A DNA stretch of 63,885 nucleotides, counting the filler, from Thermodesulfobacteriota bacterium (GTDB lineage Bacteria > DASVDK01), in the NCBI GenBank assembly GCA_036381125.1. It is 7 parts of 7 records of this genome, joined end to end, with 100 filler letters (N's around TTAATTAATTAA, not from the genome) between each part and the next. Parts side by side here need not be neighbours in the genome. Positions count along the whole stretch, not along the records: positions 38,356 to 58,680 come from DASVDK010000005.1; 6 more parts are not named here. The stretch is one strand, 5' to 3'. Below the pieces are notes generated by a model. That model was not told the origin of the DNA and did not search any database. It saw only the letters and a list, made by a program, of their open reading frames with translations. Positions 15,578 through 58,418 of this stretch are shown in pieces; within the stretch, counting starts at the first letter, position 1, and each line of letters begins with the position of its first letter. The position numbers and the translations under genes are program-made.

Positions 15578-15660
15578 GGCGCCGGGCTCGGCGCCCGGGG
15601 CCCGTGCCGCCCCCGGACCGGGGGCACGGCGCGCGGGCCGCGGCCGCGCGGCAAACGCGG

Positions 15661-15794
15661 GCGGTCAGCCCTCAACCTGCTCCCGTCCGGAAACCGGCAA
15701 GACCTGACCCCATGGAAAACGGCAAGACCTGACCCCATGGAAACCGGCAAGACCTGACCCCACGGAAAACGGCAAGACCTGACCCCATGGAACC
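15661..15794. repeat. REP-like element: degenerate left arm plus four tandem 25-nt right arms
   Basis: GGAAA(C/A)CGGCAAGACCTGACCCCA(T/C) at 15689, 15714, 15739 and 15764; no spacers. Confidence 0.9.
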
Positions 15795-15832
15795 ACGCAG
15801 GCCGGGGCGTAGACTGCGCTCGCCAGCGGTGG

Positions 15833-16795
15833 CTAGCGGTAGACGACGAGGTGGTCGGTTCCCGACTCCGGCGCCCAGACCTCGCCGGGCCGGCCGAGGA
15901 TCTGGCGGACGTTCGCGGGGGACCTGGGGCTCGGGAAGACCTCGAAGCGCTCCGTCTCCGGGTCGAAGCGAACCACGGCGTTGGCGCCGAAGTCCGAGAG
16001 CCAGACCTTGTCCTTGTCGTCCACGTACACCGCGTACGCGCGCGGCCGCTCGCCCGGTAGCTTCCACGCCTTCCAGGCGCCCGTGGCCGGGTCGTAGCGC
16101 GAGACCTGGCCCGAGTTCCACTCGCTCACCCAGATGCGGCCCTTCGAGTCGGACCAGACGCGACGCGCGCCCTGCCCGGGCGTCGGCGGCTCGATGACCG
16201 TCGCCTCGCCGCTCTCCACGTCGATCCGCGCGATGTGGTTGCCGGCGAGCGACGCGTAGTAGATCTGGCCGTCCGGCGTGGCGGTGATCCCGTACGGCCC
16301 GCGGCCGCGCGGCGCGTCCCACACGCGCATCTCGCCGCTCCTCGGGTCGAGGCGGCCGTAGACGCCGTTCTGGCCGGTGAACCAGAGGACGCCGCGGCCG
16401 TCGAAGGCGGCCGTGTTCAGGTTGGCGTAGCCGCGGCCCTTCGGCAGCGGGTAGCGCGTGACCGCGCGCGTCCGGGGATCGACGCGGACGATGGCGTTCT
16501 GTCCGCTGTCGGTGATCCAGGGCGCGCCGTCGGGCCCCACGATGACGCCGTGGGGCGCCGAGCCCGGGCCGAGCGGGATCTGCTCGACCTGGCCCGTGGC
16601 GGGATCGAGGCGGCCGAGCGCCCCCTGGCGCTGCGCCGTGTACCAGACGGCGCCGTCCGGGGCGGGCGCCACGTCGTGCGGCCCGGCGCCGTCGGGCAGC
16701 GGGTAGGCGCGTGACGTGATCTCGGCTGCCGCCGGAAGGGCCGCGAGGACGAACGCGGCCGCGAGGGGGAGCGCGGGGATCAGGGCGCGAGACAT
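15833..16795 (-). CDS. secreted Vgb-family (streptogramin lyase-like) beta-propeller
   Basis: signal peptide; repeated blades PHDVAPAPDGAVWY, PHGVIVGPDGAPW, PYGITATPDG. Confidence 0.85.
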   Translation of the reverse strand: MSRALIPALPLAAAFVLAALPAAAEITSRAYPLPDGAGPHDVAPAPDGAVWYTAQRQGALGRLDPATGQVEQIPLGPGSAPHGVIVGPDGAPWITDSGQNAIVRVDPRTRAVTRYPLPKGRGYANLNTAAFDGRGVLWFTGQNGVYGRLDPRSGEMRVWDAPRGRGPYGITATPDGQIYYASLAGNHIARIDVESGEATVIEPPTPGQGARRVWSDSKGRIWVSEWNSGQVSRYDPATGAWKAWKLPGERPRAYAVYVDDKDKVWLSDFGANAVVRFDPETERFEVFPSPRSPANVRQILGRPGEVWAPESGTDHLVVYR

Positions 16796-16881
16796 GAGGC
16801 ACCTCCGTCGAGGGTCGCACGAACCGCCATGGGCTCGGTCGCCTACACGGCGTCGGCACGACCTGTGCTGCACGGGCCGGT

Positions 16882-38355: not shown

Positions 38356-38493
38356 CGCACATCATGCGGTTCGGCAGCCGGGCCCTCTACCAGTACTGAC
38401 CCCTCGCCTGCCGTCCGGGCGCCGCGGCGCCCGGACGGCAGGCGAGGGGTCAGTACTGGTAGAGGGCCCGGCTGCCGAACCGCATGATGTGCG
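38356..38493. repeat. perfect 138-bp palindrome at the contig end (likely fold-back artefact)
   Basis: 38356-38424 is the exact reverse complement of 38425-38493 and duplicates the 3' end of the mtoX-like gene. Confidence 0.85.
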
Positions 38494-39760
38494 GCCGGCC
38501 GAGCTGGAGGGCGGTGAAGTCGAGGGCGAACCGGTCGCGCAGCTCCCGGCCGTCCCACGTGTAGGCCTTGAGGTACTGCTCGTTGTCCGCCCCTTTCTTG
38601 TCCCACCTGGCGAGGAGCGAACTCGTGAAGTAGAGCCGCTTGCCGTCCCAGCTCTGCGAGACCATGTTGAGCTGGGCGCCGATCCTCTTCTCGTGGATCA
38701 GCTTCGGCTCGAACGGATTCGAGACGTCGTAGGCGCGCGTGATGCCGTCCATGAACGTGTCGACCCAGAGCGTCCGGTCGTCGGCCGAGAGGCTGATCGC
38801 CACGGGCAGCGGCACCTTCGCCGGGTCGCCGATGTCGGCCACGGCCCTGGCCTGCCACTCGCCCCGCTCGTCCTCGTGGATGAGCCAGAGCTTCGAGGTG
38901 AGGGCCGTGGCCGTGAAGGCGTAGTTGCTGCGCGGGCCCCAGGCGACCCGGATCTCGAGCGGCGAGCCGGGGACGTGGAGGACCTTCTTCGGCTGCCGGG
39001 TGTGGAAGTCCCACACGGCCACCGTCTGCCCGAACCGCTTCATCGCCTCGCCGTCCTTCAGCATCTGGCCGAAGTCCATCATGTAGTTCGACCACCCGCT
39101 GAAGGAGGAGGTGAAGAGGGCGTTCTTTCGCGGCAGGACGCGCGCGTCGTAGCCGTAGCCGTCGGCGACCTTCTCGACCCGGGCGCCCCGCGGGTCCTGG
39201 TCGGTCGGCATCCAGTGCGTGGCGATGTGCGTGCCGTCGTTCGTGTACTCGACCAGCGCCGTCCGCCCGCCGTGGTCCCTGGCGTTCGAGAGGCCGCTGA
39301 TGAGCATGCGGCCCGGCAGCGCGTAGAACGCGTGCGGGCCGACGACCCCCCCGCTCCGCTCGGTGAAGTCGTGGATCACCGTGTGGAGCGTCGGCTTCGA
39401 CGGGTCGGTGTGGACGTCGAACACGAAAATCCGGCTCGTGTCGAGGCCGCCGGCCCAGAGGTACCGGCGGTCGTCCGTGAAGCCGGCGTGGTGCGCCTCG
39501 TGGCGGCCCCCCACGGAGACGGTGTGGACGACCGTCCCGAAGGTCCGCGAGCCCTCGCGGACGTCGACGGTGACGAGCTTGTCGGAGCCGTCGCCCATCC
39601 CCTCGACGCCGAGGGTCCAGACGTAGACGAACTCCTCCGAGCCGGTGATCTTCGGCAGGTACGGCGACTGGCAGGTCTCGTCGGCCCGGGCGGCGGACGG
39701 CCCGAATCCCGCGAGCCAGATCGCCGCTGCGAGCGCGGCGGTCGACCTCTTCGCTCTCAT
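38450..39760 (-). CDS. mtoX: SBP56-family protein, methanethiol oxidase-like
   Basis: signal peptide then DETCQSPY...YVWTLG..G.GDGSDKLVT, EAHH, GPHA, GYGYD, SGWSNY, MVSQSWDGKR.YFTSSLL..WDK, PH.M. Confidence 0.8.
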   Translation of the reverse strand: MRAKRSTAALAAAIWLAGFGPSAARADETCQSPYLPKITGSEEFVYVWTLGVEGMGDGSDKLVTVDVREGSRTFGTVVHTVSVGGRHEAHHAGFTDDRRYLWAGGLDTSRIFVFDVHTDPSKPTLHTVIHDFTERSGGVVGPHAFYALPGRMLISGLSNARDHGGRTALVEYTNDGTHIATHWMPTDQDPRGARVEKVADGYGYDARVLPRKNALFTSSFSGWSNYMMDFGQMLKDGEAMKRFGQTVAVWDFHTRQPKKVLHVPGSPLEIRVAWGPRSNYAFTATALTSKLWLIHEDERGEWQARAVADIGDPAKVPLPVAISLSADDRTLWVDTFMDGITRAYDVSNPFEPKLIHEKRIGAQLNMVSQSWDGKRLYFTSSLLARWDKKGADNEQYLKAYTWDGRELRDRFALDFTALQLGRPHIMRFGSRALYQY

Positions 39761-45272: not shown

Positions 45273-45707
45273 GTGAAGCCCGACGTCGTGCAAACGCTTC
45301 GTGAGCGGGGCATTCAGCCCTCGGCGCAGCGCGTGGCCGTCGCGCAGTACGCGCTGTTCACGGACGAGCACCCGTCGGCCGACCAGGTCTGGGAGCGCGC
45401 GAGCGGCTCGCTGCCGATGCTCTCCCGGGCCACCGTCTACAACACGCTGAACCTCTTCGTCCGCAAGGGCCTCCTGCGCGCGTTCGTGCTCGCGGAGGGC
45501 CGGGTGGTCTTCGACCCGAACGTCGAGGCCCACCACCACTTCATCGACGACGCCACCGGCGCCATCCACGACGTCCCGTGGGACGCCGTGCAGGTCCACA
45601 ACGTCGACGCCCTCGAGGACTACGACGTGCGGGAGTACCAGGTGGTCATGCACGGGCGGCGGCGGGCGCCGGCGGGCGCGAGGAAGTCGGGCGGGCGGAG
45701 GCGGTAG
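45273..45707 (+). CDS. Fur-family regulator (PerR/Irr-like)
   Basis: QR.A, HPSAD, SRATVYNTL, FD.N..AHHHF; no CxxC; directly upstream of ahpCD. Confidence 0.9.
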   Translation: MKPDVVQTLRERGIQPSAQRVAVAQYALFTDEHPSADQVWERASGSLPMLSRATVYNTLNLFVRKGLLRAFVLAEGRVVFDPNVEAHHHFIDDATGAIHDVPWDAVQVHNVDALEDYDVREYQVVMHGRRRAPAGARKSGGRRR

Positions 45708-45720
45708 CGCGTCCTTTTTT

Positions 45721-45764
45721 TTGGGACCGTGTTTAGACACCGTATAACCCTGGACACTGTTCAC
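45721..45764 (+). promoter_or_regulatory. ahpC promoter with three Fur/PerR-type boxes
   Basis: TGGGAC-cgt-GTTTAG, TTAGAC-acc-GTATAA, CTGGAC-act-GTTCAC. Confidence 0.6.
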
Positions 45765-45791
45765 GCAACGGAGACACACGGAGGCCTGTGC

Positions 45792-46331
45792 ATGCTGACC
45801 GTCGGAGACCGGATGCCGGAGTTCGCCCTGCAGGGCGTGGTGAGCCTCGAAAAGGGCAAGGAGTTCGAGGTGATCACCGACCGGGGCTACCCGGGCAAGT
45901 GGAAGGTCCTCTTCCTCTGGCCCATGGACTTCACCTTCGTCTGCCCGACCGAGATCGCGGAGTTCGGCCGGCGGGAGCGCGACTTCCGGGACCGTGACGC
46001 CCAGGTGCTCGGCGCGAGCACCGACACGCACTACGTCCACCTCGCGTGGCGCAGGGACCACCCGGACCTGCGGGACCTCCCCTTCCCGATGCTCGCCGAC
46101 ACGAAGCGCGAGCTGTCGACCGCGCTCGGCGTGCTCCACAAGACGGACGGGGTCCCGCTCCGGGCGACGTTCGTGGTCGACCCCGACGGGATCATCCGCT
46201 TCGTCAGCGTGAACGACCTGTCCGTCGGCCGGAACGTGGACGAGGTGCTCCGCGTGCTCGACGCCCTGCAGACGGACGAGCTGTGCCCCTGCAACTGGAA
46301 GAAGGGCGAGCCGACGCTCGCGGTGGCCTAG
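45792..46331 (+). CDS. ahpC: peroxiredoxin AhpC
   Basis: DFTFVCPTEI, GRNVDEVLR, ELCPCNW. Confidence 0.96.
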   Translation: MLTVGDRMPEFALQGVVSLEKGKEFEVITDRGYPGKWKVLFLWPMDFTFVCPTEIAEFGRRERDFRDRDAQVLGASTDTHYVHLAWRRDHPDLRDLPFPMLADTKRELSTALGVLHKTDGVPLRATFVVDPDGIIRFVSVNDLSVGRNVDEVLRVLDALQTDELCPCNWKKGEPTLAVA

Positions 46332-46333
46332 CG

Positions 46334-46879
46334 ATGGCGGCCCTCGAGCGACTCCGGGACGCGATCCCCGAGCCGGCGAAGGACATCCGGCTGAACCTCC
46401 AGTCGGTCCTCCAGGCCGGGGTCCTCACGCCGGCGCAGCGCTGGGGCGTGGCGGCGGCGTCGGCGATCGCCGCGCGCAACCCGGAACTCAGCCGGGCGGT
46501 GCTCGCCGACGCGCGGAGCGAGGCGGGCGCGGCGGTCGTCGACGACGCAATGGCGGCCGCCGCCCTGATGGCGATGAACAACGTGTACTACCGGTTCCGC
46601 CACGTCGTCGGCAAGCCGGGCTACTCGGAGAAGCCGGCCCGGCTCAGGATGAACCGGCTCGCCAGCCCCGCCACGAGCAAGGTCGATTTCGAGCTGTTCT
46701 CGCTCGCCGTGAGCGCCGTCAACGGCTGCGAGGCCTGCGTGCGGGCGCACGAGAAGGTGGTGCTCGAGGGCGGCCTCACGGAGGATCACGTCCACGAGGC
46801 GGTGCGGATCGCGGCCGTCGTGCACGCGGCCGCCGTGGCGCTCGAGATGGGCGCCGCGGAGGCGACGGCGGGGGTCTGA
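46334..46879 (+). CDS. ahpD: alkylhydroperoxidase AhpD
   Basis: KDIRLNL, MAMNNVYYR, NGCEACVRAH. Confidence 0.95.
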   Translation: MAALERLRDAIPEPAKDIRLNLQSVLQAGVLTPAQRWGVAAASAIAARNPELSRAVLADARSEAGAAVVDDAMAAAALMAMNNVYYRFRHVVGKPGYSEKPARLRMNRLASPATSKVDFELFSLAVSAVNGCEACVRAHEKVVLEGGLTEDHVHEAVRIAAVVHAAAVALEMGAAEATAGV

Positions 46880-46943
46880 ACCGCCGGGTCCGTTGCCGGG
46901 CGCGAGGCCGGCGCCTCGCGCCCGGACGGGACCTTCGGCCCGG

Positions 46944-47990
46944 TCAGCTCAGCTCGGGTACGACCGGCCGCTTCTCCTTCCAGAGGCAGGCGACGCCCGG
47001 CACCTCCCACTTCTCCCACATCTCGTCCACCTTCCGCTGGAAGTAGTCGACGTCCTCGTCGGTGAAGTGGGCGAAGCGGCCCTGCTTGAGGAGGTACTCG
47101 CGCACCGGCTTGCGCGGCTTGCCCTCCGCGTGCCCCTTGCTCTTGCCGTAGTACTTGACGACCCCGTCCTCCACCTCGTAGAGCGGGAAGATCCCGGTCT
47201 CGACCGCCAGCTCCCCGAGGTCGTGCGAGAGCATCGGGTCGTAGTCCCACCCCTTCGGGCAGGGATCGAGCGAGTGGATGAAGGTCGGCCCGCCGATCGA
47301 GAGGGCGCGCCGCACCTTGTTCGTGAACTCGACCGGGTACGACGCGCAGACGGTCGCCACGTACCGGCACTCCGGATGCCCCGCCGCGAGCATCCCCGCG
47401 GTGTTCTTCTTCCACCGGGTGTGGATGATCCGCTTGACGCTCCCCGGCGGGCTGAAGGTCGTGTTCGCCCCGTACGGCGTCGAGCCGGAGAGCTGGATGT
47501 CGGTGTTGGCGTACGACTCGTTGTCGTAGAGCAGGATGAGGCTGTTGTACTCCTTGTGGGTCAGCGTGGCCGAGATGGCGGCAAGGCCCATGTCGGCGCC
47601 GCCGCCGTCGCCGCAGAAGGCGATCACGTTGATCGGCTCGCTCTTGATCTTCCCCTTCTTCATGAGGGCCTTGAGGCCGGCCGAGGTCCCGAGCGCCGCC
47701 GAGCCCGAGGAGCCGAGCTGCGTGTGCATCCAGGGCACCACCCAGGGGGTCGTGTAGTACGTCGTGTTCGCCACGTACATGCAGCCGGTCGACCCGAGCA
47801 CGATCGTGCGCGGGCCGGCCGCCTTGGCCATCAGCTTCATGACGAGGGCCGACTCGCACCCCTGGCAGGTGCGGTGCCCCGACGTGAAGTACTCCGCGAG
47901 CGGCAGCTTGTGGACGCCCTTGATGGGCTCCAGCTTCTGCGTCGCGTTCGTGAAGGCGGACGAACTACCTGACTTCGTTGCCGTCGTCAT
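46944..47990 (-). CDS. 2-oxoacid:ferredoxin oxidoreductase beta subunit (oxalate oxidoreductase-like)
   Basis: GHRTCQGC, TGCMYVANT, GDGG, DNESYANT, PCPKGW. Confidence 0.9.
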   Translation of the reverse strand: MTTATKSGSSSAFTNATQKLEPIKGVHKLPLAEYFTSGHRTCQGCESALVMKLMAKAAGPRTIVLGSTGCMYVANTTYYTTPWVVPWMHTQLGSSGSAALGTSAGLKALMKKGKIKSEPINVIAFCGDGGGADMGLAAISATLTHKEYNSLILLYDNESYANTDIQLSGSTPYGANTTFSPPGSVKRIIHTRWKKNTAGMLAAGHPECRYVATVCASYPVEFTNKVRRALSIGGPTFIHSLDPCPKGWDYDPMLSHDLGELAVETGIFPLYEVEDGVVKYYGKSKGHAEGKPRKPVREYLLKQGRFAHFTDEDVDYFQRKVDEMWEKWEVPGVACLWKEKRPVVPELS

Positions 47991-47999
47991 GACGATCTC

Positions 48000-49229
48000 C
48001 TACTCGCGCACGCCGAGCCACGTGGTCTTCGACGGCGACGTCCCGCTCGCCGCGGCCGCGTAGCACATGTCGGTCGCCTTGTAGACGTCCTCGAGCGTCA
48101 CCTCGCGCCCGCCGAGCCCGCAGATGAAGGAGAGGAGCGGCGGATGGTGCGGCGCGTGGTACAGGGCGGCCCGGACCTCGTTGGCGAGGACGCCCGAGCC
48201 GAAGGGGGAGCCGAACGAGTAGTCGCGGTCGATGATGCCGACGACCTTCGCCCTCGAGAGCGCCGCCACGAGCCTCTCGGTCGCGAAGGGCCGGAACCAC
48301 CGCTGCCGGATGAGGCCCACCTTCTTGCCCTGCTTGCGCATCTCGCGGATGCCGACCTTGAAGGGCAGCGAGATGGTCCCCATTCCCATGAGGATCACCT
48401 CCGCGTCCTCGGTCATGTACTCCTCGAACCAGGGGTTCTCCGGGCCGCGGCCGAAGACCTTCCGGAAGTCGGCGTACGCCTCCTCGATCACCGTGTACGC
48501 CCGCTCCATCGCCGCGTCGTTCTGGCGGCGGATCTCGATGACCCAGTCCTCGTTCGCCTGCGGCGCGACGGTGATCGGGTTGTCGGGGTGGAGCTGCAGC
48601 TCGTGCCGGTTGTAGGGCGGCAGGAACCGCTTCACCTTCTCCTCGGCCGGGACGCTGACCAGCGCCTGCGAGTGCGTGAGGAAGGCGCCGTCGGCCGAGA
48701 TGGCGATCGGCAGCAGGACGCGCCGGTCCTCGGCGATCCGGTAGGCGAGGAGCGTCGTGTCGAGCATCTCCTGCGCCGTGTCGACCCAGATGAGCATCCA
48801 GCCGAGGTCGCGCACGGCGAGGGCGTCGTTGTGCTCGACGCCGAAGGCGCCGGGGTCGTCGAGGGCGCGGTTGCCCACCATGGCCACCATGGGGACGCGC
48901 AGGGGCGGCGTCACCGTGAGGCACTCCATCGCGTACATCCAGCCGACGCCCGAGGAGCCGCAGAAGACGCGCGCGCCGACCGTCGACGCGTGCTTCACGA
49001 TCTCGAACTGGCTGTGCTCGCCCTCGGCCACGATGTACTCGGCCACGAGCTTCCCGTTGGCGATCTTCTTGGCGATCGCCTGCATGACCGTGTCGTACGG
49101 CCGGATGGGATACGCAGTGACCACATCGATGTCCGCCAGCGCCAGCGCCTCGGCGCAGGCCTCGCTGCCGGAGAGGAGCCGCTCGACGTCGCCGTCGTGG
49201 GCGACGGGCGGCCGCATCGCGACTGCCAT
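48000..49229 (-). CDS. 2-oxoacid:ferredoxin oxidoreductase alpha subunit (YPIRP type)
   Basis: AYPIRPY, EGEH, GSSGVG, NRALDDPGAFGVEHND, FRPF, GLGG. Confidence 0.9.
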   Translation of the reverse strand: MAVAMRPPVAHDGDVERLLSGSEACAEALALADIDVVTAYPIRPYDTVMQAIAKKIANGKLVAEYIVAEGEHSQFEIVKHASTVGARVFCGSSGVGWMYAMECLTVTPPLRVPMVAMVGNRALDDPGAFGVEHNDALAVRDLGWMLIWVDTAQEMLDTTLLAYRIAEDRRVLLPIAISADGAFLTHSQALVSVPAEEKVKRFLPPYNRHELQLHPDNPITVAPQANEDWVIEIRRQNDAAMERAYTVIEEAYADFRKVFGRGPENPWFEEYMTEDAEVILMGMGTISLPFKVGIREMRKQGKKVGLIRQRWFRPFATERLVAALSRAKVVGIIDRDYSFGSPFGSGVLANEVRAALYHAPHHPPLLSFICGLGGREVTLEDVYKATDMCYAAAASGTSPSKTTWLGVRE

Positions 49230-49245
49230 GACTCTCCTCCCTTCC

Positions 49246-50460
49246 CTACGCGGCCGCGACCTTGCGGTCGGCGTTCTTGCCCGGGATCCCCTCGGTGATC
49301 TCCACCCCGCCGATGTCGAGCTGCTCCTGGATCTCCTCGTCGTACTGGCCGCGGAAGCGGAAGCCGTGCGACCGGACCACGTACTTCCTGTCGCCGATCT
49401 TCCCCTGCATCCAGGCCCGGTAGGCCTCCTTGTCCGCCTTCCACATCTCGTACTGGCTCGCGTTGTCCTCGAACGCCGCCTCGTTGACCATGGTGATGCA
49501 GTCCTTGGCCGGGCAGACCGCCTCGCAGACCCCGCAGCCGCAGCAGGCCTCCATCGCCGGGTCGTAGAGCTGCTCGGCCGTGACGTTGAAGACCGAGTCG
49601 GGGCAGGCGATCCAGCAGAGCGTGCACTTCACGCACTTGTCGAAGTCGACGACCGGCCGCATCGTGCGGGTCGTGAACTTCTTGAAGTACGGGTTCCGCT
49701 CGGGGATGAAGCCGTTGCCCTCGGCCGTGGCGTGGCCGGCCGGGATCGCCGGGATCGTGACCCCGTCGCGCATCTGGTGCCAGGCCGGCATGTCGAACGC
49801 GTACGGCTTCTCGGGGTTCCCCTCCGTGGGGCTCACCGGGCGCAGCTCGATCCGGTCGTAGGCCTTCTCCGCCGAGGCGACCTTGAGGTCGTTGCCCCAC
49901 TCCGCCTCGCGAATCGCCTGCGACACCGCGTCGAGCGAGAGGAACTCCGGCTTGATGCGGGCAAGCGCGCCGAGGACGCGCGCCTCGGTGTGGTCCTCGC
50001 GGTGGACCCAGAGGCCGGAGAAGGACGCCTTGGCGGGGAGCAGGCCGAGGCTGTAGGGCTCGTCCTTCCGGTGGATGTCCTCGAGCAGCTCCTCGGCGCT
50101 CTGCAGCGACGTGATCAGGACCGTGCCGTCCCTGACCGTGAGCCGGTTGATCGGCTGCAGGCCGTACCACGCCCAGGACTCGACCCCCTTCGCCAGCGTG
50201 TCGTCGAGGCAGATCGTGACGTCCACCTCCTTGGGCTCGTAGCGGGCCATGTTCTGCTCGAGCTCCTCCTGGGTGTCCGCCACGATGGCGAAGTCCTTCG
50301 CCGGGATTCCGTTGCGCTGCGGGCTGTCGCCGTACCGCCCGAACGCGATCCCCCAGCGGCCCGCCTTGCGCGCGGCGAGCACGATGCCGCGGCAGATCCG
50401 GGCGGCCAGGTTCTTCTGGAAGATGCCGCGGTACACGACCTCACATGTGAACGCCGCCAT
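49246..50460 (-). CDS. 2-oxoacid:ferredoxin oxidoreductase gamma-delta fusion subunit, 2x[4Fe-4S]
   Basis: N-terminal gamma-like domain (YGDSPQRNG); CVKCTLCWIACP and CCGCGVCEAVCP. Confidence 0.88.
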   Translation of the reverse strand: MAAFTCEVVYRGIFQKNLAARICRGIVLAARKAGRWGIAFGRYGDSPQRNGIPAKDFAIVADTQEELEQNMARYEPKEVDVTICLDDTLAKGVESWAWYGLQPINRLTVRDGTVLITSLQSAEELLEDIHRKDEPYSLGLLPAKASFSGLWVHREDHTEARVLGALARIKPEFLSLDAVSQAIREAEWGNDLKVASAEKAYDRIELRPVSPTEGNPEKPYAFDMPAWHQMRDGVTIPAIPAGHATAEGNGFIPERNPYFKKFTTRTMRPVVDFDKCVKCTLCWIACPDSVFNVTAEQLYDPAMEACCGCGVCEAVCPAKDCITMVNEAAFEDNASQYEMWKADKEAYRAWMQGKIGDRKYVVRSHGFRFRGQYDEEIQEQLDIGGVEITEGIPGKNADRKVAAA

Positions 50461-50486
50461 TGCTCCCTCCGGTGTAAGATCCGTTC

Positions 50487-51023
50487 ATGATCATCGCCCA
50501 CGTCGCCGTCACGACCGCCGACGACTACCTCGCCCGGCGCGCCCCCTACCGGGAGGCCCACCTCGGCCGCCTCCTGGACCTCAGGGCCCGCGGCCTCGTG
50601 GTGGGCGGCGGCCCCGCCCCCGACGGCCGGTCGGCCGACGTCGTCTACCGGGCCCCCGACGAGGCCGCGGTGCGGCGCCTGGTCGACGAGGACCCCTACG
50701 TGACGGGCGGCGCCTGGACCGGCTACACGGTGACCCCCTTCACCGAGTTCCTCGAGCCCTGGCGCCTGCCCCCGCTCGTGACCGACGGCTCGCGCCGGGT
50801 CACGATCGTCGAGGGCGTCGTCACCGACCCGGACATGGCGCCCCTCGCGCTGGTGGAGGCCCGCGGGGCGGGGCGCCTCCTGTTCGGCGGCCTCTTCGCG
50901 GGCAGCCGGGCGCTGGCGGTCATGGCCGAGCCGGAGCCCGAGGGGCCGCTCCGCTGGTTCGCCGAGACCGGCTTCTTCGCCCCCGACAGCCTCCGCTCCC
51001 GTCCCCTCCTGTACGTGCTCTAG
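50487..51023 (+). CDS. YciI-family protein (tandem YCII-like domains)
   Basis: RRAPYREAHL, GGGP, EDPYV; second degenerate copy LLFGG. Confidence 0.75.
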   Translation: MIIAHVAVTTADDYLARRAPYREAHLGRLLDLRARGLVVGGGPAPDGRSADVVYRAPDEAAVRRLVDEDPYVTGGAWTGYTVTPFTEFLEPWRLPPLVTDGSRRVTIVEGVVTDPDMAPLALVEARGAGRLLFGGLFAGSRALAVMAEPEPEGPLRWFAETGFFAPDSLRSRPLLYVL

Positions 51024-51062: not shown

Positions 51063-51893
51063 CTATGTCCTCACCCCTTCCTTGACAGTGGTCCGACCGT
51101 TGTCGGCAGCGGTCGGATCATCGCCCGACGGCCCCGCCCGGTCGGACGGCCCCCCTTGCAAGCGCACGAGCGCCCCGCGGTACGACTCGAGCGCGTCGAC
51201 GAGGAGCCCCTCGAGCGTCTTGAGGTGCTGCAGCATCGCGGCCGACGCGGCCGGCCCGTCGCCGGCCGCGACGGCATCGAGGATCTGGCGATGGTCGACG
51301 ATCGCCTGCTCGCGCCGGGCATGGCTGTCCACCAGCTCGCGCCGGCTCTCCGAGACGAGGTCCGAGAGGTAGTTGTGCAGGCGGATGAAGGTCTGGTTGT
51401 GCGCCGCCTCGGCGATGGCGAGGTGGAAGCCCCGGTCGGCGTCGTAGGCGACGTCGAGGTCGTCGGCCTCGAGGTCCCGCTCCTGCCGCGCGAGCGCGTC
51501 GCGGATCCGCTCCACGTCGGCGCGCGTGGCGCGCTCCGCCGCGAGGAAGGCGAGGCGCGGCTCGAGCATCTGCCGCGCTTCGTAGAGGTCGAGGAGCGCC
51601 TGCCGCTGGCGCACCAGGTAGTTGCCGAGGGGGACCGTGAGCGCGGAGGGGAGGCTCTGCGCCACGTAGTTGCCGCCCCCCTGGCGCGACCGGATGAGCC
51701 CCGACAGCTCGAGCGCGCGCAGCGCCTCGCGGATCGAGCCGCGGCTCGCCTGGAACACCTCGGCGAGCTGGCGCTCGGGCGGGAGCTGCTCGCCCGGCTT
51801 GAGCTCGCCGCGCGCGATCCGGCCCTGGAGGGTGCGGACGATCGCCTCCGTGACCTTGCCGCGTCTGCGAGGCGGCGCCGCGTCGTCGGCCAT
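51063..51893 (-). CDS. GntR/FadR-family transcriptional regulator
   Basis: LPPERQLA..F..SRGSIREAL, RQGGG; FCD domain D..FH..IA...H..I...M..H. Confidence 0.93.
   Translation of the reverse strand: MADDAAPPRRRGKVTEAIVRTLQGRIARGELKPGEQLPPERQLAEVFQASRGSIREALRALELSGLIRSRQGGGNYVAQSLPSALTVPLGNYLVRQRQALLDLYEARQMLEPRLAFLAAERATRADVERIRDALARQERDLEADDLDVAYDADRGFHLAIAEAAHNQTFIRLHNYLSDLVSESRRELVDSHARREQAIVDHRQILDAVAAGDGPAASAAMLQHLKTLEGLLVDALESYRGALVRLQGGPSDRAGPSGDDPTAADNGRTTVKEGVRT
51087..51120. promoter_or_regulatory. FadR-type operator(s) at the 3' end of the regulator gene
   Basis: AGTGGTCCGACCG (51087-51099) and the related CGGTCGGATCA (51110-51120). Confidence 0.55.
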
Positions 51894-52031: not shown

Positions 52032-52058
52032 CGGTCGGACCACTGGCATCCACCATAC
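52032..52058 (-). promoter_or_regulatory. -10 and FadR-type autoregulatory operator
   Basis: minus strand TATGGT followed by AGTGGTCCGACCG (52044-52032). Confidence 0.6.
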
Positions 52059-53948: not shown

Positions 53949-55456
53949 TCACACCCTCCGCACGGCCTCGGCGAGGAGCCGGCGGCCCTGGTCGATCTGC
54001 CGCCGCCGTGCCTCCCGCCAGGCGCGGTGACGCTGCAGTCGTCCGTCGGCGTCGGCGAGCTGCTTCCCCATCTCCCGCGGGCTCGGGCTCCCCTCGGTGG
54101 CGAGCGCCTCGAGGAACCGCTCCGGGTCGAGCTGCTGCCGGACCCACGGTGTGGGGAGCCCGAGCGGCCGGCCGAGGGTCTCCTGGGCCGCGGCGTCGAG
54201 CATGGCGCCCGTGACGGCCTCGACCGTGACCCCGTCGCGAACGGCATTGCGGACCAGGCGGGCGACCACGTGATGCGCGGTGCGGAAGGAGAGATCGCGC
54301 TCCCTGACGATGGCGTCGGCGAGGGCGCTGGCGGTGCTCCAGAAGGCACCGGCCCGGCGGCGCATCTCGTCCGCGTTGATCGTCAAGGACTCGAGGACGC
54401 CGACCACGAGGTCGAGGCAGCGCCACGTCGTGTCGGTCGCCTCGTCGAGAACGTGGCCCGCGTAGGCCGGGTCGCAGTCGGTGCTCGACGCGCTGCGAGC
54501 GATGCCGGCCGAGGCGGGGAACCAGCCGACGGCGCGCCCGGCGAAGCCGCGGACGTGCTCCAGGGCGACGGCGTTCTTCTTCTGCGGCATGATCGACGAC
54601 GAGCCGCAGTACCCGTCGTCGACCTCGACGAGGTCGAATTCCCAGCTGTGCCAGAGGTAGAGGTCGCCGGCCATTCGGCCGAGGTCGACCATGGCGATGC
54701 CGAGGACCGCCGCCGTCTCCATGACCCAGTCGAGCGTGAACTCGCCGGCGTCGTGCGAGTTGACGACGATGTCGTCGTGCCCGAGCAGCTCGGCGACGCG
54801 CCGGCGGTCGAGCGGCCACGAGGTGCCGCAGAGCGCCGCCCCGCCGAGGGCGCTCAGGTTCACGCGGGCGAACGCCTCCTCGACCCGCTGCATGTCCCGC
54901 TCGAACAGGTAGAACTGCCGCAGCAGGTAGTGGCCGAGGGTCCAGGGCTGGGCGTGCTGGAGGTGGGTCCAGCCCGGCATGAGGGTCCCCACGTGCCGGG
55001 CGGCCATCCGATGGAGACGGTCGGACAGCGCCGCGAGACCGTCGTGGACCACGAGGAGGCGATTGCGGACGAAGAGCCTCGCCACGGCCGCGTTGTGGTC
55101 GATGCGGCTTCGCCCCGTGTGCATCCGGCCGCCGACGTCCTCGCCGATACGGTCGGTGAGGAAGGTCTCCACCTGCAGGACGAGCGAGTCGAATCTGGGG
55201 TCGATCGGGAACGCATCGCCGAGGGCCGCCGCCTCCTCGAGCGCTCCGAGGATCGCCCGCGCCTCGTCCGACCGCAGGATCCCCCGCTCGCGGAGCATCA
55301 CGACGTGCGCCGTGTCGACCTGCAGGTGCTCCGGCAGGGCACGCCGGTCCCTCGCGAGCCGCGGCGTCAGCATGTGGTCGAGCACCCGCTGCGCGGTGGC
55401 GGAGAGGCGGCCCGAGGTGAGGGGCCTCCTGGCACCGGTCGTCGATGTCTCGCTGC

Positions 55457-55460
<4 letters not shown>
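53949..55460 (-). CDS. argininosuccinate lyase-like C-N lyase (fumarase/aspartase superfamily)
   Basis: HTGRSRID, THLQHAQP, SSIMPQKKN, FRTAH; long C-terminal helix. Confidence 0.88.
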
Positions 55461-56595
<1,135 letters not shown>

Positions 56596-56599
<4 letters not shown>

Positions 56600-57597
56600 G
56601 ACGGCTTCGGCCCCGCCGGGCCAGGCTCGGCGAGCCAGCAGGCGGCCGCGTGACCCGGGCCGATCGTCAGCGGCGGCGGCTCCCGTTCGGCGCAGGCCGG
56701 CATCGCGCTCGGGCACCTCGGGCCGAACCGGCAGCCCGTCGGGAGGTCCGCCAGGCTCGGAACGAAGCCCTCGATGGCGTAGAGCTCCGCGTCGGGGCGC
56801 TCGAGGCTGATCACCGAGCGAAGGAGCCCGGCGGTGTAGGGATGGGCGGGGGCATCGAAGAGGCGCTCGACCGGCGCCTCCTCCACGACCCGGCCGGCGT
56901 ACATGACGTACACGCGGTCGCAGACCTCCGCCACGACCCCGAGGTCGTGCGTGATCAGGAGGAGCGCCATCCCGAGCTGCTTCTGCAGCGACTTGAGGAG
57001 GTCGAGGATCTGCGCCTGGATCGTCACGTCGAGGGCCGTCGTCGGCTCGTCGGCGATCAGGAGTGCCGGCCGGCACGAGAGCGCCATCGCGATGAGCACG
57101 CGCTGCCGCATCCCGCCGGACAGCTCGTGCGGGTAGCGCTCCGCCACCCGGGCGCTCCGGGGGAGGGCGACCATGTCGAGCGCCTCGGCCACCCGTGCCT
57201 CGACCCGGTCGTGACCCCGGTGGAAGCGGATCGCCTCGGCGATCTGCTCGCCCACCCGCATGACCGGGTTGAGGTAGGTGGAGGGGTCCTGGAAGATCAT
57301 GGCAATCTCCCGGCCGCGCACCCTGCGCATCGCCTCCGGCGGCAGCCGCAGGAGGTCGACGCCCCGGTAGAGCACCTGGCCGCCGGCGTAGCGCCCGGGC
57401 GGCTCGGGGATCAGCCGGAGCACCGACAGCGCCGTCACCGACTTGCCGCAGCCGGACTCGCCGACCAGGCCGACGGCCTCCCCCGCGCGCACGGCGAGGC
57501 TCACCGCGTCGGTCGCCCTGACCACCCCTCGCGACGTGAGGAAGTGCGTCGAGAGCTCCTGCACGGCGAGCAGGGGCTGCCCCGCCGTCGCGCTCAT
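56596..57597 (-). CDS. oligopeptide ABC ATP-binding protein
   Basis: [29 protein letters not shown]. Confidence 0.93.
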
Positions 57598-58418
57598 CGC
57601 TCTCGAAGACGGGGATTGAGGGCGTCGTTCAGCCCGTCCCCCACCAGGTTGAAGCCGAGGACCGTGAGGAAGACCGCCGCCCCGGGAAAGGCCGAGAGCC
57701 ACCACGCCTGGCGCAGGTAGCGCTGGGCCTCCTGCAGCATCGTCCCCCACGACATCGCGTTCGGATCGCCGAGCCCGAGGAAGGAGAGGCTCGCCTCGAG
57801 CAGGATCGCCTGCGCCACGTCGAGCGAGCCGGCGACGACGGCCGGGGGCAGGGCGTTGGGGAGGATCTCGGAGACGATGATCCGGAGACGCGACAGGCCG
57901 ATGGACCGCGCCGCCTCGACGAACTCCTGCTCCTTGAGCGACAGGAACTGCGCCCGCACGAGGCGGGCCGCCGGCGGCCACGAGAGGATGCCGATGACGG
58001 CGATGATCCGGTCGAGCCCGCCCCCCAGGAGCGCCACCACGACGAGGGCGAGGACGAGGCGGGGCATGACCTGGAACATCTCCGTGATGCGCATGAGCAC
58101 GGCGTCGAGCCGGCCGCCGTGGAACCCGGACGTCGCGCCGACGACGATCCCGATGGCAACGGCGACGGCGGCGGCCAGGAGCCCGACGGTGAGCGAGACC
58201 CGGGCGCCGTGGACGAACTGGCTGAACACGTCCCGCCCGAGGGCGTCGGTCCCCATGAGGTACCCCTCGCCAGGCGGCCGGAACGAGGCCCGGGAAATCG
58301 CGAACGGGTCCGCGGGGGCGATGGCCGGCGCGAGGAGCGCGACCAGCCCGAACAGGCCGACGACCGCGAGTCCGAAGACCGCCGCCCGATTCCGTCGAAA
58401 CCGCCGCCAGAAGTCCAT
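57594..58418 (-). CDS. peptide ABC permease (DppC-like)
   Basis: [25 protein letters not shown]. Confidence 0.93.

Follow-up and report, generated by a model that had tools for sequence, protein, structure and literature searches.

To our knowledge, only one oxalate oxidoreductase (OOR) has been characterized, that of an acetogen, and Asp116 is the residue on which its bait-and-switch mechanism depends. The OOR of Moorella thermoacetica (MtOOR; PDB 5C4I, 5EXD and 5EXE; NCBIfam NF045790–NF045792) is built from three chains, one of which is a gamma-ferredoxin fusion. Here we describe an OOR-like locus of the same layout at positions 46944..50460 of a DNA stretch of 63,885 nucleotides (filler included; hereafter the window) from a Thermodesulfobacteriota bacterium (GenBank assembly GCA_036381125.1). 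The part of the window that carries it, positions 38356–58680 (DASVDK010000005.1), is a single contig (C5) of this 4.33 Mb genome, which is 96% complete. Judged by sequence, the delta-alpha-beta set is an uncharacterized sister form of OOR; it is probably a coenzyme A (CoA)-free oxalate oxidoreductase in which either another acid (alpha Asp125 or Asp46, or beta Asp164) or the withdrawal of an arginine replaces the switch.

In the accessible text of PMC5020499, the YPIRP motif is described as unique to OOR, the bait-and-switch mechanism involves Arg31 and Asp116, and CoA is unneeded; the YPIRP motif and the residues given for MtOOR in an earlier note on this DNA agree with that description. The accessible part of PMC12337175 likewise states that OOR alone needs no CoA. 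In pyruvate:ferredoxin oxidoreductase (PFOR), a phosphate loop in domain III binds CoA (PMC8091585, accessible part), and For-type enzymes have five subunits, including epsilon, with the gene order D-E-A-B-C (PMC13768988, accessible part). Our literature searches, with most subscription papers outside their coverage, returned no published description of the variant clade to which the locus belongs.

Subunits and active-site residues

The three genes are intact open reading frames (ORFs) on the minus strand, separated by gaps of 16 and 9 nt, and they encode the three subunits that the earlier note had read there. The delta subunit (49246..50460; 404 aa) comprises domain III (gamma), a domain V with two [4Fe-4S] clusters and a C-terminal tail of ~70 aa; alpha (48000..49229; 409 aa) comprises domains I–II; and beta (46944..47990; 348 aa) comprises domain VI, with thiamine pyrophosphate (TPP)/Mg and the proximal [4Fe-4S] cluster (Cys42, 45, 70 and 244). 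The ligands for three [4Fe-4S] clusters and TPP, as well as subunits I-II, VI and III-V, were all present as in the MtOOR type.

The top PDB sequence match of every subunit was MtOOR (alpha, E 5e-95 to 5C4I_A; beta, 1e-87; delta, 2e-16). The nearest CoA-dependent group was the four-subunit archaeal-type PFOR (PorCDAB), which shares fold and gene order and whose Methanosarcina acetivorans member (9BT4) was the best PFOR match of alpha (E 1e-57, TM 0.83). Alpha is 42% identical to MtOOR alpha, with a TM score of 0.85 to 5C4I_A in the fold search. Delta is only ~22% identical, and a delta profile of 11 chains aligned along the whole of MtOOR delta (7–332 to 5C4I_B 16–315, E 5e-19); the top eight fold matches of the delta model (mean pLDDT 60) were OOR delta chains. 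The best NCBIfam model was an OOR model for each subunit, and an ESM Atlas search returned generic POR clusters only. The cut-offs of four-subunit PFOR, VOR and PadG models were missed (PorA_Arch, 331 against 550; PRK08367, 276 against 625; PRK08366, 235 against 646; PadG, 274 against 700), and neither the YPITP motif nor the Gly-rich CoA loop of those enzymes is present.

Alignment of alpha to MtOOR was gap-free across the bait and switch motifs. YPIRP, which the earlier note had read instead of YPITP, lies at alpha 40–44 (49098..49112); its Arg43 corresponds to Arg31. Just after the motif come Tyr45 and Asp46, the latter specific to the clade and in place of Thr34. The switch loop RALDDPGAFGVEH (alpha 121–133; 48831..48869) aligns with the MtOOR loop RTLDPPGDFGEEH, given in the earlier note exactly as it stands in the PDB sequence. 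Arg121 and Phe129 match Arg109 and Phe117, Ala128 occupies the Asp116 position, and a new acid, Asp125, lies three residues earlier in place of Pro113, just as that note had read the loop. In beta, Asn162-Thr163-Asp164 (47499..47507) aligns Asn162 with Asn143 and puts Asp164 in place of Gly145. The two enzymes further share Glu59 (Glu71 here), Gln62, Asp112, Gln211 (Gln224 here), the beta CMYVAN sequence and the four beta cysteines. The parts played by MtOOR Glu59, Gln211, Asn143 and Glu154 are presumed here, their numbering alone having been checked on PDB sequences. Features beyond those in the earlier note were the invariant alpha Asp46 and beta Asp164, the delta tail, two delta cysteines, an upstream GntR gene with its operator, and a canonical OOR in the same genome.

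Further differences from MtOOR lie in delta. They comprise an insert near residues 95–103, two extra cysteines in the ferredoxin domain (49498..49635), which has two CxxCxxCxxxC motifs plus Cys307 (153/156 loci) and Cys321 (158/158 loci), and the tail (333–404; 49249..49464), which is conserved to about residue 375, is not found in MtOOR delta and gave no Pfam match. A complex prediction of delta 328–385 on alpha plus beta scored 0.00, which counts neither way.

Where CoA-dependent gamma subunits have their Gly-rich CoA phosphate loop, delta carries RGIFQK (50413..50430), compared with RGVVMNK in the MtOOR type. When six gamma domains were aligned, the Gly-rich loop was seen in the two CoA-type PorC proteins, RGVV[M/K]DK in two canonical OORs and RGIFQK in the variant, whose Arg11 and Gly12 were identical in all 141 loci read. 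The residue we take to be the plug of OOR domain III, Glu154, aligns in the profile with delta Glu155, followed by Asp156 (49993..49998), in a weak region (22% identity overall; model pLDDT low at 145–154). An acid occupies position 155 in 146 of 149 loci, and Asp156 is kept in 147 of 149. Because the Gly-rich CoA loop is absent as in OOR, a CoA-dependent PFOR or For-type enzyme is unlikely.

Phylogeny and spread of the variant clade

Alpha trees were built with motif columns kept and rooted at the midpoint; MtOOR, ForA and the five-subunit For/Por sequences were not among their rows, and canonical OORs stood in for MtOOR. In a FastTree analysis of 108 alpha chains, all 33 Arg-type rows formed one clade (SH 100), which split into the canonical RTLDPPGDF group and a DDPG[A/N]F sister group. 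An IQ-TREE analysis of 38 alphas, including 20 YPITP rows, two annotated PorA, gave 100/100 each for the variant clade, the canonical group and the separation of YPIRP from the 20 YPITP rows, the bootstrap being not fully settled. The phylogeny proposed in the earlier note thus placed the variant beside the canonical OOR clade, as its sister and not within it, and apart from YPITP enzymes; together with the missing Gly-rich P-loop, the trees bear out that note's view of an uncharacterized OOR-clade enzyme distinct from ordinary PFOR or 2-oxoglutarate:ferredoxin oxidoreductase (OGOR). A small third branch (proteins P0134 and P0274) carries FPIRP and RALDDPGNFAMEW, with Asn at the 116 position, and is sister to the Ala variant.

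Conservation was counted in 167 loci (80 from GTDB, 80 from metagenomes and seven others), with six canonical loci for comparison. Arg43, Asp46, Glu71, Gln74, Arg121, Asp124, Asp125, Ala128 and Gln224 were invariant in 167/167 loci. The metagenome scan patterns included Arg43, Arg121 and Asp124-125, so the counts for these residues are partly built in; the patterns did not include Ala128, Asp46 or any beta or delta residue. Beta 164 was Asp in all 139 loci read, against Gly in five and Asn in one of the canonical loci, which all six had Thr, Pro and Asp at alpha 46, 125 and 128. The switch loop was identical in 119 of the 120 best homologues. Since Ala128, Asp125 and Asp46 recur in 167 of 167 loci, the altered loop is due neither to chance nor to sequencing error.

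The variant occurs commonly among uncultured bacteria of soil and groundwater. Its named hosts, all metagenome-assembled genomes, include Rokubacteria, NC10, Binatia, Nitrospinota, Tectomicrobia, Dehalococcoidia, Armatimonadota and Firmicutes. For the phylum of G002, the genome of one Rokubacteria locus, a manual count over 201 Methylomirabilota genomes gave a variant-type match (at least 66% identity) in at least 128. Twelve genomes among the matches listed had a match at 39–43% identity, and all five of these that were fetched carry the Asp116 loop. A search of the whole phylum of the source genome returned two genomes, the source genome itself and a congener with a 97%-identical alpha. No clade member turned up in a plasmid collection.

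These proteins are labeled 'pyruvate ferredoxin oxidoreductase' in databases, the gene set is near-core in Rokubacteria, and the window regulator has its best NCBIfam matches, all under cut-off, in PdhR and LldR. PPDK lies downstream in 37 of the 80 GTDB loci, which counts in favor of a conventional, CoA-dependent ferredoxin oxidoreductase for pyruvate or 2-oxoglutarate (PFOR or For-type) feeding PPDK and against an oxalate enzyme. We nevertheless consider such an enzyme very improbable: the variant lacks the Gly-rich CoA loop, has Arg where YPITP has Thr and falls in a separate clade, the four-subunit archaeal-type PFOR having YPITP, Asn at the 116 position and, in the gammas compared, the Gly-rich loop. 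PPDK was found in 0/80 metagenome loci, and as it is missing outside Rokubacteria-type loci, we did not accept it as proof of pyruvate. E1 dehydrogenases were present in five of five carrier genomes. The For-type 2-oxoglutarate enzyme offered as an alternative in the earlier note fared no better: unlike the CoA-dependent five-subunit enzymes of Hydrogenobacter and Aquifex (PMC13768988, accessible part), the locus has three genes and no CoA loop, and neither epsilon nor any other extra subunit recurred in the neighboring gene clusters.

Neighboring genes, the canonical paralogue and the substrate

The usual cluster plan is GntR-delta-alpha-beta-transporter. In the GTDB loci, mostly from Rokubacteria, the transporter is TctCBA (64/80), and an OxlT-like gene adjoins the cluster in 18 of the 80 metagenome loci. 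Among the 37 metagenome loci with at least 1.5 kb downstream, 14 had OxlT and 6 had TctC. All 15 OxlT proteins tested and both MFS genes in locus L097 exceeded the oxalate/formate antiporter cut-off TIGR04259 (17/17), and in L033 an OxlT-like gene takes the place of TctCBA within an otherwise Rokubacteria-type cassette. Genes for an oxalate-CoA-ligase-like protein and for a PanE2-like (ketopantoate-reductase-like) protein were each found in 6/80 loci. The one ligase representative searched had oxalate-CoA ligases as its top four PDB matches (436 bits, the next enzyme reaching 222). In M. extorquens, PanE2 acts as an oxalyl-CoA reductase (PMC8411744, accessible part); the genes beside the variant are homologues, with no orthology implied.

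TctC proteins from beside variant and canonical OORs formed one clade with five proteobacterial plasmid homologues (32 rows, SH 99), which leaves out the 18 other TctC proteins of the source genome. Within the same coverage as above, our literature search found no report of an oxalate transporter of the tripartite tricarboxylate transporter (TTT) type. Neither Oxc nor Frc scored over cut-off in five of five carrier genomes, nor did Oxc in any of 101 Methylomirabilota genomes. We favor oxalate over a new substrate because the neighbors across the clade are oxalate genes, and oxalate is our best guess. The earlier note had suggested a possibly different substrate or mechanism. Its first half is set back by these oxalate-type neighbors, and its second half gains from the trees, the missing P-loop and the altered loop, which in an OOR-clade enzyme makes a changed mechanism likely.

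The source genome (G000) also holds a canonical OOR. Its locus on contig C273 (12221–22237) comprises the OOR, whose gamma is encoded separately, preceded by a paralogous GntR gene and followed by a TctCBA orthologue (TctC 71%, TctA 80%). The alpha gene (15617–16834) encodes YPIRP and an RTLDPPGDF loop with Asp116, is 42% identical to the window copy and passes NF045791 (542 > 500); the paralogue also passes NF045790 (242 > 230). The GntR/FadR-type regulator of the window (51063..51893, minus strand; 276 aa) is 76% identical to its C273 counterpart, the next best being 32%. A Cys-rich ORF of ~390 aa (C273, 12221–13393), divergent from the GntR gene, is a possible electron acceptor. Both forms of OOR occur together in G000, G053, G058 and G188, and in locus L114 (5893–16919) their operons stand in tandem. 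In L156 (144–3302), a canonical gamma gene begins directly after variant beta. In the canonical operons of L098, L103, L104, L105 and L108, GntR and gamma are separated by a gene for a CDC48-like AAA ATPase, and some of these operons also have a TerC/YjbE gene and an NAD-dependent epimerase gene after TctA.

A putative FadR-type operator, TGGTCCGACC, lies upstream of the window GntR gene (52033..52042, minus strand), and a second copy of the box lies at the 3' end of that gene, between regulator and delta (51089..51098, plus strand); chance alone could give two such boxes in the window (17/100 shuffles). Similar boxes stand upstream of the C273 GntR and C273 TctC genes, and a further copy of the C273 operator lies on contig C97 near 1669. 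In 63 of 68 GTDB loci, the box occurs no more than 150 nt upstream of delta (control stretch, 0/68); it was found in 21 of 65 metagenome loci. Since it is a general FadR-type palindrome and appears in just 21/65 metagenome loci, we did not retain a shared operator as strong evidence. The shared regulator and importer fit one effector with two isoenzymes; retention of both enzymes also fits two substrates.

That last point bears on a rather unlikely alternative, an enzyme that needs no CoA and acts on a compound resembling oxalate (glyoxylate, oxamate, mesoxalate or oxalurate), in which Arg43 would bind a polar group, Ala128 would give room and the acyl-TPP would be hydrolyzed; it would sit in an oxalate regulon because its substrate or product is related to oxalate. 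The replacement of Asp116 by Ala in 167/167 loci together with three new invariant Asp residues, the retention of the variant in at least four genomes that also have a canonical OOR and its tandem arrangement with one in L114, and a related TctC near gcl and hyi in two of the four Azospirillaceae plasmids read are consistent with it. A gene for an FMN alpha-hydroxy-acid oxidase, adjoining the cluster in 5/80 metagenome loci (L144, L169, L175, L180 and L189), likewise favors it over oxalate; those loci are one variant branch in which the oxidase replaces the oxalate transporter, and this branch may have another substrate. Nevertheless, both arginines, as well as Gln224 and Asn162, match OOR, the neighboring genes homologous to OxlT, oxalate-CoA ligase and PanE2 are of the oxalate type, and inspection of neighboring clusters by eye, with no hidden Markov model scan, showed no recurring amidase, carbamate kinase or oxamate carbamoyltransferase.

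The ligase and reductase genes, adjoining 6/80 loci each, could also be read as serving an oxalate enzyme whose main direction in vivo is the reverse one, for carbon fixation or as an electron sink: two CO2 and two electrons would give oxalate, then oxalyl-CoA and glyoxylate. Loss of the residue said to drive decarboxylation would suit this direction. CO2 reduction to oxalate requires a very low-potential donor, and none recurs in the neighborhoods. Importer-type neighbors and a FadR-type repressor fit catabolism, and assimilation of imported oxalate explains the ligase and reductase; we hold the reverse direction to be highly improbable.

Several further observations weigh against the CoA-free oxalate oxidoreductase that we favor. 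All three subunits missed the OOR equivalog cut-offs (NF045790, 80.7 against 230; NF045791, 373 against 500; NF045792, 346 against 590), and the C273 paralogue and three other canonical alphas, taken as controls, exceeded the NCBIfam OOR cut-off; the window enzyme would be OOR-like in working, yet it is outside the OOR family as defined. Asp116, which the accessible text of PMC5020499 describes as important in the MtOOR mechanism, is absent, and the AlphaFold monomers place neither the switch loop of alpha (pLDDT <50 over 121–135) nor the plug loop of delta. Neither OxlT nor TctC was found in 18 of the 37 long metagenome loci, 15 of the 17 tested OxlT proteins exceeded the L-lactate SfMCT cut-off too, with lower scores, and OxlT falls in about three separate places on the alpha tree, mostly in one large branch. 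The substrate of TctC is inferred from its neighbors only. The window copy has no transporter adjoining its cluster, and no OxlT over cut-off was found in the source genome. An Oxc-like thiamine diphosphate enzyme scoring 515–537 bits (cut-off 739) occurs in 12 of the 101 Methylomirabilota genomes, including G029, G060 and G089. The co-occurrence of variant and canonical OORs could equally mean another substrate.

Around the locus, a YciI-like gene (50487..51023, plus strand) lies antisense between regulator and delta; it is genus-specific and probably outside the system. The delta and YciI-like starts stand 26 nt apart, back to back (50460–50487), and a TAAGAT hexamer 6 nt ahead of the YciI ATG suggests a leaderless transcript. 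Delta must be transcribed by read-through from the GntR side. A promoter and terminator scan gave nothing above chance. The adjacent ahpCD genes reported in the earlier note are indeed there, in a perR-like, ahpC and ahpD operon (45273–46879, plus strand) convergent with beta. The functional hint drawn from them did not hold up, and we rejected ahpCD as a partner, since among all loci examined AhpD stands beside the cluster only in the source genome and one congener. A GC-rich inverted repeat (~46897–46925) separates the ahpD operon from beta. Farther off are a gene for a 436-aa SBP56 family protein (selenium-binding protein/methanethiol oxidase-like; 38450–39760, minus strand) and a set at 53949–58418 (minus strand) of peptide/nickel-type ABC transporter genes, after which come an isochorismatase-like hydrolase gene and an argininosuccinate-lyase-family gene; the set looks like a catabolic cluster for some nitrogen compound.

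Possible mechanism and wider meaning

The variant would be a second type of OOR, independent of CoA and dependent on TPP as well as on three [4Fe-4S] clusters, converting oxalate into two CO2 plus a pair of low-potential electrons. We picture a (delta-alpha-beta)2 assembly under a FadR-type repressor, with oxalate taken up through the TctCBA importer of the C273 locus. By analogy with MtOOR, oxalate would pass the acidic plug of domain III (delta Glu155/Asp156) on its way in, and Arg43 and Arg121, together with Gln224 and beta Asn162, would hold it; TPP, activated by Glu71, would form an adduct that undergoes a first decarboxylation, two one-electron transfers via the clusters and a second decarboxylation. 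With Ala at the 116 position, there would be no 'Asp-in' switch at that place. More speculatively, another invariant acid may destabilize the carboxylate, either by a direct push or by drawing Arg43 off ('Arg withdrawal'). Which acid this would be is a guess, because the models leave the loop unplaced: alpha Asp125 is a tentative first choice at somewhat less than even odds, beta Asp164 comes behind it as a possible but less likely one, and alpha Asp46 is improbable, as is a mechanism that needs no replacement acid. Asn stands at this position in M. acetivorans PFOR and in the small DDPGNF branch, so the canonical line may have acquired Asp116 late, rather than the variant having lost it.

The variant would then act as an isoenzyme of the canonical C273 OOR, probably for other conditions (O2, oxalate level). 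For such a pair, the two OGORs of H. thermophilus, which differ in O2 sensitivity (PMC13147460, accessible part), offer a precedent; like the variant, the five-subunit Por/For enzymes of Hydrogenobacter and Aquifex are 2-oxoacid:ferredoxin oxidoreductases in hosts that meet O2. COX1-family genes were present in five of five carrier genomes tested, including the source genome, in line with the aerobic traits that the earlier note ascribed to the organism. None of the five had acetyl-CoA synthase, so the electrons are not fed to the Wood-Ljungdahl pathway in these hosts. The PFOR of D. africanus resists air by means of a disulfide (PMC13768988, accessible part), and O2 tolerance of the variant is a guess by analogy. 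A broader proposal, which we put forward as doubtful, is that Rokubacteria and many other abundant uncultured soil bacteria degrade oxalate mainly with an O2-tolerant OOR that has no Asp switch and owes its protection to the delta tail and Cys307/Cys321; such an enzyme would give respiring hosts low-potential electrons directly from oxalate and be missed by oxc/frc/oxdC surveys.

A widespread natural clade that has the Arg bait and never Asp116 tests the need for the switch, and a canonical paralogue in the same genome with a near-identical regulator provides a matched control, making the two forms directly comparable. Should oxalate be the substrate, a major uncultured lineage of the soil (at least 128 of the 201 Methylomirabilota genomes sampled) possesses a route for it that databases label PFOR. 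That route would be absent from a survey based on oxc, frc, oxdC and oxlT (PMC10192776), in which the word 'oxidoreductase' does not occur. An air-stable, CoA-free interconverter of CO2 and oxalate, if the variant is one, would be useful in bioelectrocatalysis. For the genomes concerned, the PFOR label may have inflated inferences of pyruvate synthase.

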